A stretch of 24,000 nucleotides of DNA from an uncultured Gammaproteobacteria bacterium (GTDB taxonomy: Bacteria; Pseudomonadota; Gammaproteobacteria; Arenicellales; JAANXG01). The stretch is taken from assembly GCA_947259955.1 (NCBI GenBank), contig CAMYOI010000010.1:4185-28184 (forward strand), read 5' to 3'. Both the position numbers and the translations under genes were made by a program. Positions 13,944 to 17,521 of this stretch are shown here, one piece after another (position 1 is the stretch's first letter; the number at the start of each line of letters is the position of its first letter). The notes under the pieces were generated by a model. It worked only from the letters and a program-made list of their open reading frames with translations. It searched no databases and was not told the DNA's origin.

Positions 13944-14285
13944 TTAAGCCTGACAGATTTTATGAGCCATGATCGAATAAACTATTAACAACATGATAAA
14001 GATGGTCGCCATCCACGTAAGAAGTCGAAAAAGCCTGTATCTCCGCTGAACGTCGGTCGGAACATCCGCCAGTGACTCCGCAAGCTCTCTAAGCGCTACG
14101 GTCTGGCGCGGGATAGCAAGCAGGATACTTGACAATATATAGATCGAGGCTTTTTTACGTGTACCCTTGATATCGTCGTGATCCATAAGCAACTTACGCC
14201 GTATTAACGCCCGAACGAACAGCAAAATCAACGCCCCGCCGTACAGGAAGACAACTACAGAAAGACACTGCAACTTGCCAATCAT
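13944..14285 (-). CDS. small 3-TM membrane protein; candidate immunity protein for the RHS C-terminal toxin
   Basis: 113-aa ORF with three hydrophobic segments (LSVVVFLYGGALILLFVRAL, IYILSSILLAI, LLTWMATIFIMLLIVYSIM). Its start overlaps the RHS stop (ATGA, 14282-14285). It is strongly AT-rich compared with its flanks: a 60-nt sample at its 3' end is 18/60 GC. The position immediately downstream of a polymorphic-toxin C-terminal domain is the canonical immunity position. Confidence 0.55.
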   Translation of the reverse strand: MIGKLQCLSVVVFLYGGALILLFVRALIRRKLLMDHDDIKGTRKKASIYILSSILLAIPRQTVALRELAESLADVPTDVQRRYRLFRLLTWMATIFIMLLIVYSIMAHKICQA

Positions 14286-17200
14286 TGTCGTTTAACAACA
14301 AGACATAGCAAAGTAGGGCCATTGGCAAGCGCGGATGCGATTATTGGTCCCGCCTTTTGCTCAGCTAAGCTCAAGTAATGATGCTCCGCCTGCAGAGCCG
14401 CAGCCCCCAGTATCATAATATTTGTCATGATCCCGAAATATGGGCCTGCTCCATACCCCACACCTAGTGCCAGCAAATTTGGCCCTGCGTCAAACGTCCC
14501 CCGAGCGTTGATTGAAATTTGATCGTGGACTTGCCAATCATCACAATCATCCGTGCACTCCACATCAATATTGACGTACCCCCTCGCATGGCCATACAAA
14601 CGTAGAAGGTGCAAATAACCCCACTTCGAAACCGATGGAGAAATAAAATCCCAGCCGTCAACCCCTATATCATTTACATTGAAGCGAGGGGGCTCAATCC
14701 ATATTCCCTGTGCTAATAGTCCTAAAGGGTCAATAAACGTATTCGGATTTGCGCTGCCATACAAGTAGTTATTTGACCCGCTAAACAGCCCAATCGGATC
14801 ACTCGTGATGTACCGCCCGCTTTTTGGATCGTAGTACCGATTCCAGTTGTAATGCAGCCCTGACTCCGAGTCATAGTACTGGCCCGGGAACCTCAGATTG
14901 AGGATGACTTTCTTGCCGTCAGCGTCCGGATCCTTGTCGGGTCGGGTCAAGCCGAACGGTTCACTGTCCCAGCGCCATTTAACGGTCTTGTTTTCGTCCA
15001 GGCCCAGCCTGGGAGTGTTCAAATGGTCGGTGACCAGATAAATTCTCTGTCTTTCCTTCAGCAGCCCCGCGTTCGTGCGTTTGACCTTTGCGTATAAAAC
15101 CGGTTGGTCGCCGGCCCACACATAGTCTTTGATCGGCTTGCCGCTCGACCCGTCGCTTTCCCCAATCAGGTGACCATTCTTATCGTAGTGGTAGACGACA
15201 CGATTGCCTGCCTTTACCTTGTGCACCCTCCGCCCCAGGTAGTCGTAGACATAGGCTGCTTTCAATTCACCGTTTTTTAAGTAAGCGTCAACTCGACCAG
15301 CCTGATTGTAAGCAAATGATCTACGGCCCGATCGCGCGCCGGTCTGGTGCCCGGCAAGATCGTGCACCACGGCACGGCCGCCAGCCCTGACCAGCAGATT
15401 GCTCCCAGGCATGTAAACGTATTCCCGGATTGCGCCATCCTTAACCATCGTCTCGCGGTTGCCGTTCGGATCATAACCATATTGAAAGTCCGGCAGCGGC
15501 CCTGATCCGATTTCCAGATCGTCGATCAGCCTGTCCAATTGATCGTAGCCATACTCCCTGCTGCTGGTATTCTGTATCAGCGACACAAGGTTGCCATTGG
15601 GATCGTATCGATGTGAGCGCTCTTCCAGGACTCCGACACTCTGTTCATTCATTCTGCCCTTCAGGTCATGAGTGCGCGATTCCACGATTCCGTTACCAAA
15701 CGTCTGGCCAAGGAGAGCTCCATCGGCGCGCCAGGCTCGCCCGGTAAGCACATCTGTAATGTCGCCACCGACCGTCGTGCGGACATCTGTAATGCGTCCT
15801 GCCCAATCGCGGACGTATTCGACAAGTCTGCCGCTCGGGTACCCCATAGAGATGATCCGGTCGGCGCGGTCATAGGCATAACGGGTGACGTAGCTCATTC
15901 CTTCAATGGTTCGCTTTTCCATCACCACATTACCCCATACATCATACTCGTAGGATATCTCGCCGGACTGGTCCAGCACCCTGCAAATTCGCCCCGTCCC
16001 GTTATCGCAAGTGTCGTAGCCGATGGTGACATCTTCAGACGCACCCGGGTAATCAACGGCGATAAGACGATCCAGAGCGTCATAAGCATATGTGGCGGTG
16101 ATATCACGCGCGTCATTGATGCTGACCACGTTGCCTGCGGCATCATAGGAATAGCGCGCTACACCCCGGTCCGGACTGGACTCTCTCAGCAGGTTACCGA
16201 GATCGTCGTATTCATAAGTCGTCGATGCGCCGTTTGGAGCCGATACGCCGACGAGATGGTTCTGAGTGTCGTATTCGAATTCCGTCGAATTCGATAACGC
16301 GTCCAGTGTTTGCGTCAATCTTCCCAGCCCATCGTAATGGTGTGTCGTCGGCGGGTTGAGATTCGGATCGGTTTGACTCACTAAATCCCCGGCCGCGTCG
16401 TAGACCGTTTGCACGATTGACCCGGCCGTATTGGTTTGTGCTACGCGGTCTCTCAGATCAAATGCAGCCTGCGCCCACCGTACCTGCCGACCAAGGGGAT
16501 CACTAATTTCCTGCCGTACCTTGTTGCCTTTAAGATCGTAGGCATAGTCGATGGTGTTCCCCAGATTGTCTGTGATTGAACCCAGATTATGTGCGGCGTC
16601 GTAGCTATATGTGAATGTGACGCCATCCGCCATCATAGCGGATAAAAGCTGCCCCTCGTTGTCATGAGACATGGCTGTGGGTCTCGTCTCTCCACTAGGA
16701 GCAATTCGAGTGACACGTGTTATCCGGTTACGCAGATCATATTTCCAGGTTGTCACTACACCCAGTGGATCCGTGGATTGAGTCAGCAAACCCCTATCAT
16801 CGTAAGTATCGAACGTTGTAGTGTGACCCAGAGCGTTGCTTCGACTCGCCAGCTGGCCGCACTCCGCGCCGCTATCGCAATCATGGTAGGACATCGTCAT
16901 GGCGTCGTCGACGTCTGTTCTGGGTCCGTCAATGCCGATGACCCGCCCAACATCATCACGCTCGAATGAGCTGATTCTGGAAAGCACGTTTCCCGCCTTG
17001 TCGAACCCCTTTATCGAGACGGAAGTGATATTCAAATTCTCGTCGTACGTACTCGACGTTTCCCTGCTGAACCCGGCTGCAACGCTGGAGCTGATCACCC
17101 GGGTTGGCAGGTTGATATTGGGCGAAACATACTCATACCGCGTCGTTCTCTCCTGTAAGGTTCCCGTCGCTTCGGTCGTCGACACCTTTTGATTGTTCGT

Positions 17201-17521
17201 GTTGTAGGAGTATGTCGTGGTCCGGCCCTCCTCGCCCATTTTCCGCACGAGGTTGTTGTTGGCATCGTAATGCCGTGTTTCACCCTTGCCGTCGGCGCGG
17301 CTGAACCTGGAGGTGAGTCGATACGCACCCAGGTTTTTCTGGTAGGTGTAGTCCCACCGTTCCCCAACCGGATCGGTAACGATCGTCGCAGTCGATCCGG
17401 TAACGCCAATCTGGTTCGCTGACGATACGGATACCCAGGCATTGGCCATCAGAAAAAATGCTCCTGCAAGTAAAAGTATCTTTTTGGTAGACGCCTTATT
17501 CTGTTCATGAGCAGATCCCAT
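14282..17521 (-). CDS. RHS/YD-repeat polymorphic toxin with Sec-type signal peptide and an unrecognised C-terminal domain
   Basis: It carries many YD repeats (YxYDxxGN/R type) across about 900 aa. The canonical RHS core end is present: LVTDHLNTPR...RFPGQYYDSESGLHYNWNRYYDPKSGRYITSDPIGL...NPNTFIDPLGL. I place the start at the ATG at 17521 (MGSAHEQNKASTKKILLLAGAFFLMANAWVSVSSA), because GGAGGT lies 7 nt upstream and a signal peptide follows. The track start at 17644 adds 41 unlikely Arg-rich residues. The C-terminal domain after DPLGL spans 14285-14716 (144 aa). Confidence 0.9.
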   Translation of the reverse strand: MGSAHEQNKASTKKILLLAGAFFLMANAWVSVSSANQIGVTGSTATIVTDPVGERWDYTYQKNLGAYRLTSRFSRADGKGETRHYDANNNLVRKMGEEGRTTTYSYNTNNQKVSTTEATGTLQERTTRYEYVSPNINLPTRVISSSVAAGFSRETSSTYDENLNITSVSIKGFDKAGNVLSRISSFERDDVGRVIGIDGPRTDVDDAMTMSYHDCDSGAECGQLASRSNALGHTTTFDTYDDRGLLTQSTDPLGVVTTWKYDLRNRITRVTRIAPSGETRPTAMSHDNEGQLLSAMMADGVTFTYSYDAAHNLGSITDNLGNTIDYAYDLKGNKVRQEISDPLGRQVRWAQAAFDLRDRVAQTNTAGSIVQTVYDAAGDLVSQTDPNLNPPTTHHYDGLGRLTQTLDALSNSTEFEYDTQNHLVGVSAPNGASTTYEYDDLGNLLRESSPDRGVARYSYDAAGNVVSINDARDITATYAYDALDRLIAVDYPGASEDVTIGYDTCDNGTGRICRVLDQSGEISYEYDVWGNVVMEKRTIEGMSYVTRYAYDRADRIISMGYPSGRLVEYVRDWAGRITDVRTTVGGDITDVLTGRAWRADGALLGQTFGNGIVESRTHDLKGRMNEQSVGVLEERSHRYDPNGNLVSLIQNTSSREYGYDQLDRLIDDLEIGSGPLPDFQYGYDPNGNRETMVKDGAIREYVYMPGSNLLVRAGGRAVVHDLAGHQTGARSGRRSFAYNQAGRVDAYLKNGELKAAYVYDYLGRRVHKVKAGNRVVYHYDKNGHLIGESDGSSGKPIKDYVWAGDQPVLYAKVKRTNAGLLKERQRIYLVTDHLNTPRLGLDENKTVKWRWDSEPFGLTRPDKDPDADGKKVILNLRFPGQYYDSESGLHYNWNRYYDPKSGRYITSDPIGLFSGSNNYLYGSANPNTFIDPLGLLAQGIWIEPPRFNVNDIGVDGWDFISPSVSKWGYLHLLRLYGHARGYVNIDVECTDDCDDWQVHDQISINARGTFDAGPNLLALGVGYGAGPYFGIMTNIMILGAAALQAEHHYLSLAEQKAGPIIASALANGPTLLCLVVKRQ

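Follow-up and report, generated by a model that had tools for sequence, protein, structure and literature searches.

The minus strand of a 24,000-nucleotide stretch of DNA from an uncultured Gammaproteobacteria bacterium (contig CAMYOI010000010.1; the whole stretch is called the window here) carries an RHS gene whose last 144 codons specify a distinct C-terminal domain, the tip, and a gene of 113 codons that overlaps its end. The tip is a real protein family without described relatives, borne exclusively on RHS proteins. It represents a new candidate family of toxin domains within an already known type of system, on an unusual scaffold independent of type VI secretion systems (T6SS), with no detectable structural relative. 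On balance, the two genes are somewhat more probably than otherwise a polymorphic toxin-immunity cassette in which a non-enzymatic, membrane-inserting and probably depolarising toxin would be neutralised in the membrane. An earlier note on this DNA, written from its letters and without database searches, had proposed such a pair. Its observation is partly confirmed and its interpretation supported by the analysis, with all the computational refutation tests that it named turning out in its favour.

The features of the cassette are the following.

17417..17521 (-): start codon and predicted Sec signal peptide of the signal peptidase I (SPase I) type, residues 1-35, cut between MGSAHEQNKASTKKILLLAGAFFLMANAWVSVSSA and NQ; evidence from the Shine-Dalgarno sequence, the n/h/c-region layout and the start on near-identical contigs.
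14717..17416 (-): YD-repeat shell and RHS-associated core, ending in SDPIGL...(23 residues)...IDPLGL; evidence from Pfam, NCBIfam, phmmer and the Asp spacing of Tse5.
14285..14716 (-): 144-residue candidate C-terminal toxin tip, protein residues 936-1079, with tip residues 1-77 predicted as β-sheet and 78-143 as helical; evidence from the lack of a database match, the AlphaFold2 (AF2) model and composition.
14393..14488 (-): charge-free glycine-zipper segment, tip residues 77-108, AGPNLLALGVGYGAGPYFGIMTNIMILGAAAL; evidence from column statistics (n=35).
13944..14285 (-): 113-residue candidate immunity gene with two predicted transmembrane helices and a basic loop; evidence from the ATGA overlap, homologues, substitution rates, hydropathy and alignment A6.

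Gene organisation and self-cleavage site

The RHS product is read from ATG 17521 within a minus-strand open reading frame (ORF) spanning 14282..17644, giving a protein of 1079 residues encoded at window 14285-17521 (-). This start is the best supported, with a GGAGG Shine-Dalgarno sequence 7-8 nt upstream, and gene callers chose the same product with the same start on near-identical metagenome contigs. Pfam RHS_repeat (PF05593) matches the protein in seven stretches (E=8.7e-66), NCBIfam YD_repeat_2x (TIGR01643) matches it at E=1.7e-44, and the NCBIfam RHS-associated core (TIGR03696) covers residues 855-935 (E=6.6e-21). A phmmer search against PDB chains recovers solved Rhs shells with E down to 2.7e-58, including Tse5 (8cp6_B), an entry that holds the shell only (1121 residues) and is matched through the RHS part alone.

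The end of the core reads SD908PIGLFSGSNNYLYGSANPNTFID931PLGL935, with D908 and D931 spaced by 23 residues, and the RHS core motif stops four residues past the second of these aspartates, at Leu935. The earlier placement of the shell end at DPLGL is thereby confirmed, in the form IDPLGL, and the tip beyond it reads exactly as had been quoted. D908 and D931 form a putative catalytic pair, with a predicted cut after Leu935. In Tse5 the catalytic residues are D1141 and D1164 and cleavage occurs at L1168 (PMC9637101 and its supplement text); the geometry of autoproteolysis is identical, consisting of two aspartates 23 apart and a cut, predicted for the window protein, after DPxGL.

Composition changes beyond this site. 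The GC content is 0.488 in the tip and 0.468 in the small gene against 0.542 in the shell, in agreement with the earlier observation that both are AT-richer, and GC at third codon positions (GC3) is 0.458 in the tip against 0.618 in the whole shell and 0.660 in the core's final 300 nt. The RHS gene and the small gene meet at CGA CAA TGA / ATG ATT, an ATGA overlap without a Shine-Dalgarno sequence in front of it, and this arrangement fits translational coupling. A scan for promoters and terminators gave a site count no higher than in shuffled sequence.

Distribution of the tip family

The 144-residue tip has no Pfam, NCBIfam or PDB-sequence match. Searches of all PDB chains with the tip (phmmer) and with the family profile (hmmsearch) returned noise only, the best match being an integrin β2 transmembrane segment (E=0.44), and Pfam scans of 35 individual family members, with E up to 1, produced no consistent match. 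A first word-index search gave one relative. An exhaustive profile search with a hidden Markov model over 1.84 billion cluster representatives, at E<=1e-3, recovered 74 proteins, 25 of them at E<=1e-30; around five of these proteins are spurious matches of a repetitive nature, leaving about 70 clusters. In every true match with upstream sequence, the tip lies directly after a DPxGL-type motif of an RHS protein and runs to the C-terminus, and none was found on a CdiA scaffold. The family members are referred to below by protein (P) and locus (L) numbers. Taxonomic labels were recovered for only two of them, a Gammaproteobacteria metagenome-assembled genome (MAG; L011) and a Lysobacterales MAG (L017).

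Pfam scans of six long members found DUF6531, RHS repeats and the RHS core in every one of them, and a Golvesin_C insert in five. This Golvesin_C-like domain sits shortly before the RHS core in P0007, P0008, P0010, P0015 and P0037 and might serve the secreted shell for binding to its target. Both it and DUF6531 are missing from the 1079-residue window protein. The earlier note had suggested surveying RHS, CdiA and T6SS scaffolds for the same tip and small gene. Both do occur on other RHS proteins; the profile matches included no CdiA scaffold, and the six long members scanned had no PAAR or VgrG domain.

The tip also occurs in orphan cassettes. One of these (L001) consists of the last ~45 RHS-core residues, the tip and the small gene behind in-frame stop codons, and two more (L012 and L016) likewise keep only such a core stub with a tip and a small gene. 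The L012 cassette (91-1187) lies behind an IS3-type transposase and the L016 cassette (87-708) behind a RelE/MqsA toxin-antitoxin pair. A further orphan, L015 (185-1942), has four unannotated small ORFs upstream, which are possibly further orphan toxin-immunity modules. A variable C-terminal domain, an adjoining small gene and orphan cassettes constitute polymorphic-toxin behaviour, and such cassette features are cited as hallmarks of polymorphic toxin-immunity systems (PMC3482391).

The downstream gene and its counterparts in other clades

The downstream gene had been described as overlapping the RHS gene by ATGA and encoding a small membrane protein with three transmembrane helices. The 113-residue ORF, its overlap and its membrane character stand; the number of helices has to be revised to two. 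The protein belongs to no Pfam or NCBIfam family. Homologues are found directly after homologous tips in L001, L002-L007, L009-L011, L017-L021, L023 and L024, with the following tip identities to the window tip and gene junctions.

L002-L007 and L018: tip identity 97%, junction ATGA
L010 and L011: tip identity 74-80%, junction TAATG
L009: partial tip, junction ATGA
L001: tip identity 67%, junction ATGA
L019 and L020: tip identity 63%, junction ATGA
L021: tip identity 62%, 17-nt overlap
L017, L023 and L024: tip identity 57%, 11-nt overlap

At L011 the small gene had been overlooked by the original gene caller. The ratio of nonsynonymous to synonymous substitution rates (dN/dS) of the small gene is 0.19-0.31 where synonymous sites are unsaturated, and the proportion of nonsynonymous differences (pN) is far below that of synonymous ones (pS) throughout; the gene family is under purifying selection. 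Lack of conservation of the small ORF beside homologous tips had been named in the earlier note as a point that would count against the pair. The small gene is instead kept next to tips of 57-97% identity in independent lineages. It is also more diverged than the tip in every pair (52 vs 68%, 52 vs 63% and 45 vs 57% identity), a faster divergence of the small protein than of the toxin, as in immunity genes.

Hydropathy analysis delineates two strong segments in the 113-residue protein, at residues ~5-29 and ~85-113, with Kyte-Doolittle 19-mer values of 2.3-2.5. The middle segment peaks at 1.0 in the window protein and at 0.3-0.5 in a 96%-identical homologue. The corresponding stretch of homologues contains charges and reads MNKLSSILLAIPRQ, RLLKPLLIVPRQ or RLARLFLAISRQ, and the apparent third helix stems from a window-specific substitution of IYI for MNK. 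A three-helix immunity protein is ruled out by hydropathy and by the charged middle stretch of the homologues, and the protein is predicted to have two transmembrane helices. The loop of ~55 residues between them counts 14 K/R vs 7 D/E and is therefore, by the positive-inside rule, predicted to be cytoplasmic, which places the termini, with the invariant residues C7 and C111, on the periplasmic side. Invariant cysteines are thus found in both families, three in the toxin (C54, C58 and C138) and two in the immunity protein (C7 and C111, at predicted periplasmic helix ends), and this shared property may point to disulfide formation or redox reactions at the periplasmic face.

More distant tips have other partners. 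Tips at 40-51% identity are followed by proteins of 99-120 residues that combine a Zn-ribbon with two helices (L012, L015 and L025), and the tip of L016, at 29% identity, has a two-helix protein of 104 residues downstream. Comparison by hhalign finds the Zn-ribbon-type and 104-residue partners unrelated to the 113-residue family (probability about 1%), and the partner proteins of the other clades have no significant Pfam family. The three downstream families (113-117 residues, the Zn-ribbon type of 99-120 residues and the 104-residue type) each have two hydrophobic helices. Judged from these sequences, small two-helix membrane proteins from at least three unrelated families serve as partners to one toxin family, and each of them is predicted, by the positive-inside reading, to leave almost nothing exposed to the periplasm. 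Such sparse periplasmic exposure would locate neutralisation in or at the membrane, and the pairing of distant tips with unrelated two-helix membrane proteins strengthens that reading.

These data also bear on an account without any toxin-immunity pair, in which a surface or periplasmic RHS protein would use the tip for anchoring in the membrane or for assembly, with the small protein as its membrane partner. The hydrophobic nature of both proteins, and the fact that no delivery system was found encoded nearby, are in keeping with it. However, the tip follows the self-cleavage motif, which is the toxin position in RHS proteins, it occurs with its small gene in orphan cassettes behind a mere core stub, and composition jumps at the junction. 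Moreover, the divergence of the partner outpaces that of the tip, and in other clades unrelated small membrane proteins take its place. A structural role of this kind is accordingly considered very improbable, and a toxin with its immunity protein remains the preferred interpretation.

Conservation and predicted fold of the tip

Alignment A2 comprises 35 tip sequences with 25-67% identity to the window tip. Residues W6, P10, G46, C54, C58, W61, G78, N80, G133 and C138 are invariant in it (n=35), and no Asp, Glu, His, Lys, Arg or Ser is; the lack of an invariant acidic, basic, His or Ser residue argues against an enzyme. AF2, run on the tip with an 11-sequence alignment, gave a mean predicted local distance difference test score (pLDDT) of 90.2 and a predicted template-modelling score (pTM) of 0.73. 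The model comprises strands at residues 3-8, 12-29, 34-56 and 59-77, followed by helices at 81-90 and 92-143, with the helical part beginning at G78-P79-N80. Strands 3 and 4 are joined by a turn with C54 on one side and C58 on the other; the loop between the two cysteines varies in length, and a disulfide-closed C54-C58 hairpin is plausible for an exported protein. A Foldseek search with the model returned no credible neighbour, the best TM-scores of 0.22 (PDB) and 0.31 (BFVD) being noise, and recurring LptE/BPI-like matches were set aside at that noise level. The earlier statement that the tip matches no known toxin motif is borne out, with no hit to a known toxin family by sequence (Pfam, NCBIfam, PDB) or by fold.

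The hydrophobic half of the tip contains an ordered small-residue ladder. In the window tip, a small residue or Asn occupies each fourth position (A83, G87, G91, G95, N99 and 103). Across the 35 sequences the small-residue fraction is 1.00 at position 83, 1.00 at 87, 0.77 at 91, 0.91 at 95 and 0.69 at 103, with Asn at position 99 in a fraction of 0.91, and charge is nearly nil over residues 77-108, position 89 excepted. The ladder conforms to (A/G)xxxGxxxGxxxGxxxN and starts five residues past the invariant GPN in 28 of the 35 members. It agrees with the definition of a glycine zipper that is applied to the depolarising toxins EsxX and TelE (PMC12744356), so that the zipper noted earlier in the C-terminal half is both present and conserved in position.

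Proposed mode of action and alternative explanations

The favoured reading implies the following course of events. Sec would carry the RHS protein across the inner membrane, the YD-repeat shell would enclose the 144-residue C-terminal domain, and the protein's own aspartyl protease site (D908/D931) would free this domain after DPLGL. The freed domain, carried by the shell, would then act as a non-enzymatic membrane toxin, its β-sheet half keeping the hydrophobic half soluble, docking it, or both. The glycine-zipper/Asn helix (78-108) and the C-terminal helices may enter the target cytoplasmic membrane from the periplasmic side, where self-association through the zipper/Asn face would yield an ion-conducting assembly and collapse the membrane potential. 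The co-translated 113-residue inner-membrane protein, with termini outside and loop inside, would block the toxin within the bilayer of the producer and its kin. Toxicity, membrane insertion, pore formation with conductance, and the mechanism of immunity are proposed here by analogy with Tse5-CT/Tsi5, the ionophores of contact-dependent inhibition (CDI) and glycine-zipper toxins.

Several observations weigh against this course. The zipper motif arises somewhere in 45% of composition-matched shuffles, so only its fixed position across the family carries weight. The Kyte-Doolittle 19-mer maximum over the zipper is 1.0-1.2, and only residues 123-141 reach 1.66, the transmembrane threshold being 1.6. 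AF2 packs the helices on the sheet as one compact α/β domain (pLDDT 90), in which the hydrophobic helix could be the core of a soluble protein, and its confidence is at a minimum (pLDDT 72-81, residues 81-110) exactly in the zipper. The three invariant cysteines of the tip could form a metal site or serve thiol chemistry, and the AF2 model of the 113-residue protein is poor (pLDDT 59). In addition, neither a gene of a type II secretion system (T2SS) nor a device for crossing the outer membrane was found in the window.

The compact sheet-plus-helix model, the zipper hydropathy below the transmembrane threshold and the three invariant cysteines would also suit a soluble α/β toxin with an inner-membrane target, such as an essential membrane protein, a lipid carrier, or the transport of lipopolysaccharide or lipids. 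Such a toxin would act by binding, extracting or modifying that target and not through a pore, and the immunity proteins would shield or mimic the target. The best, non-significant Foldseek neighbours (LptE, BPI, SPLUNC1 and LBP) are lipid-binding proteins with a sheet around a helix and point the same way, but these matches are noise, with a TM-score of about 0.2 and E >= 0.017. There is also no invariant catalytic-type residue, His64 being lost in a distant branch. The charge-free stretch 77-108, with its ladder of small residues or Asn at i+4, is more typical of helix packing in a bilayer than of a soluble core, and the immunity proteins are predicted to be nearly bare outside the bilayer on the periplasmic side. 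A soluble toxin of this type is therefore rated as unlikely.

The β-then-α layout of the AF2 model also suggests a refinement of the membrane-toxin reading along the lines of CDI ionophores, with the β-sheet half as an entry or receptor-binding module for a specific inner-membrane protein of the target cell and the helical half as the ionophore, which would make toxicity receptor-dependent. CDI ionophores combine a variable entry domain with a helical ionophore domain bearing a putative glycine zipper; they require membrane-protein receptors and are paired with small, polymorphic membrane immunity proteins (PMC11630599). However, CDI entry domains are modular, whereas the two halves of the tip are equally conserved and never apart among the 74 matches; the helical part consists of two helices, not a five-helix bundle, and no family member was found on a CdiA scaffold. 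This refinement appears decidedly unlikely.

A membrane-inserting, depolarising toxin neutralised in the bilayer thus remains the favoured interpretation, and a more specific form of it can be put forward tentatively, with more doubt than confidence. The tip may found a structurally new α/β class of membrane-depolarising toxins, present only on Sec-exported, T6SS-independent RHS proteins of environmental Gammaproteobacteria. Its β-sheet would shield the zipper/Asn helix and then release it into the target membrane from the periplasmic side, and the invariant cysteines, three in the toxin and two in the immunity protein, would take part in redox-controlled activation or neutralisation.

Signal peptide, delivery and genomic neighbourhood

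The N-terminus of the RHS protein, MGSAHEQNKASTKK-ILLLAGAFFLMANAWVSV-SSA followed by NQ, has a basic n-region, an 18-residue hydrophobic core and an SPase-I-type site, without a lipobox. This n/h/c layout, read heuristically, predicts a Sec/SPase-I signal, as the earlier note had recognised. Signal-peptide-like N-termini are present in six of the 11 long family members (P0005, P0010, P0015, P0019, P0037 and P0076); among the remaining five, P0066 starts at a non-ATG codon within the repeats, P0036 is apparently a chimera, and P0006, P0007 and P0008 seem to be truncated. Pfam finds no PAAR or VgrG domain in the window RHS protein or in the six long members scanned. The earlier remark on the absence of PAAR, VgrG or T6SS genes nearby is likewise upheld: no PAAR, VgrG, T6SS or T2SS gene occurs among the larger Pfam-scanned ORFs of the 24-kb window, in which several ORFs of at least 100 residues are without a match or unscanned.

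The delivery route, previously called unclear, can be narrowed by two precedents. The census of polymorphic toxins lists proteins that combine a signal peptide with RHS as a class (PMC3482391), and Bcn-A of Xanthomonas perforans is a secreted RHS bacteriocin that depends on the T2SS (xpsD) and has an inner-membrane immunity protein (PMC7259588). By analogy, passage beyond the periplasm most plausibly proceeds via type II secretion, as a diffusible RHS bacteriocin. Accessory ORFs resembling those of Bcn-A were not detected in the 24-kb window.

The window ORFs with a Pfam match are metabolic or regulatory, including an APH-aminotransferase, a helix-turn-helix (HTH) protein, PspA, GNAT, a cyclase and others. 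A divergent neighbouring ORF of 532 residues is FimW_N-like, according to the precomputed annotation of its orthologue. At window 8580-10880 (-), a 766-residue fusion joins an APH-type phosphotransferase domain to a class-III aminotransferase and is kept in the related MAG contig L011. An adenylate/guanylate cyclase gene at window 20074-21313 (-) is split into overlapping ORFs of 230 and 218 residues by a 1-nt insertion near 20827; the gene is intact (412 residues) on the 95%-identical contig L002, and the split copy is either a pseudogene or a sequencing error.

At window 11843-13836 (+), a PspA/IM30-family gene (215 residues) overlaps by ATGA a polytopic membrane ORF of 449 residues without a Pfam family, and this pair and the RHS-immunity operon converge, the distance to the operon's stop codon being 107 bp. 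The position of a membrane-stress gene beside a putative membrane toxin is suggestive; a functional link between PspA and the RHS protein was nevertheless rejected, as the PspA neighbourhood is not kept at L011, L020 or L023. In the ~97%-identical relatives (L002 at 10424-10572, L003-L007 and L018), homology to the window ends ~85 nt past the immunity stop codon (window ~13861), and all seven contigs end within ~150 nt, inside one common sequence. This looks like a multi-copy element inserted past the immunity gene and breaking the assemblies.

Implications

RHS toxin-immunity cassettes are well known, and Tse5 is one characterised pore-forming RHS toxin; the present finding does not overturn current concepts. 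If the tip is a depolarising toxin, the few bacterial effectors known to target membranes would gain a new fold. In the long members whose N-termini are intact, signal-peptide-like sequences are present instead of PAAR, and the family offers a clean system for studying how Sec/T2SS-exported RHS proteins bring cargo to other Gram-negative cells, a subject essentially unstudied apart from Bcn-A. Should the proposed novel α/β class prove true, it would provide a tractable model of a signal-peptide RHS protein killing another Gram-negative cell without a contractile injection system. The occurrence of at least three unrelated two-helix candidate immunity families for one toxin family would be useful for understanding the evolution of intramembrane neutralisation.

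Comparison with known systems

Among the RHS/T2SS toxin domains that Zhang et al. 2012 (PMC3482391) list, Tox-WTIP alone is pore-forming. It resembles the tip as a predicted membrane-spanning toxin domain on signal-peptide ('T2SS') RHS proteins of proteobacteria. Membership is ruled out, as its defining RxxR and Wx[ST]IP motifs are lacking in all 35 members tested (Wx[ST]IP in 0 of 35) and there is no Pfam match.

In the CdiA-CT groups 1-6 of E. coli, an N-terminal module is joined to a helical membrane module that has a putative glycine zipper, and the toxins evolve as pairs with immunity proteins, which are small, polymorphic proteins of the membrane (PMC11630599). They differ in their CdiA scaffold of the type V secretion system (T5SS), their five-helix-bundle ionophore and their modular helical entry domains, whereas the present family has two helices and a β-sheet that always occur together. 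The tip is excluded from the CdiA ionophores, since all its members follow the RHS DPxGL motif and AF2 predicts four strands and two helices. EsxX, TelE and TspA of the type VII secretion system (T7SS) and CdzC/D resemble the proposed toxin: they carry an extended (G/A/S)xxxGxxxG in a hydrophobic C-terminal helix, have no enzymatic motifs and are countered by membrane-integral immunity proteins (PMC12744356, PMC5380434). They are built on LXG/T7SS or type I secretion system scaffolds in Gram-positive bacteria or Caulobacter, have no sequence relationship to the tip and lack a β-sheet half.

Bcn-A serves, by analogy, as the delivery precedent. It is a gammaproteobacterial RHS antibacterial toxin without a T6SS, whose supernatant activity is lost in an xpsD (T2SS) mutant (PMC7259588), and its immunity protein, ORF5 (145 residues), is predicted to lie in the inner membrane; a relative of the tip (L017) occurs in a Lysobacterales genome. 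Bcn-A requires accessory ORFs 2-4, none of which was detected in the window; the likeness is drawn from descriptions.

The closest functional analogue proposed for the pair is Tse5 (RhsP1, PA2684)/Tsi5 of Pseudomonas aeruginosa (PMC9637101, PMC10684867). The N-terminus of Tse5 is PAAR-like, and the toxin is launched by the H1-T6SS with VgrG4, whereas the window protein begins with a predicted Sec signal and the window yielded no T6SS gene. The class of T6SS-delivered Rhs effectors was accordingly rejected, PAAR and VgrG not being found in the protein or its scanned neighbours and the N-terminus being a predicted signal peptide. Tse5-CT, which begins IIPLV, is described as consisting of helical transmembrane and amphipathic segments, whereas half of the window tip is predicted β-sheet, a comparison made by description. 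The correspondences concern the design of the whole system. Tse5-CT is a 149-residue Rhs C-terminal domain without predicted enzymatic function that forms depolarising pores and is countered by Tsi5, an immunity protein with two transmembrane helices (PMC9637101). In both systems an RHS shell surrounds a C-terminal domain of about 145-150 residues without predicted enzymatic function, and a small inner-membrane protein with two predicted transmembrane helices, Tsi5 or the candidate immunity protein described here, is encoded beside the toxin.

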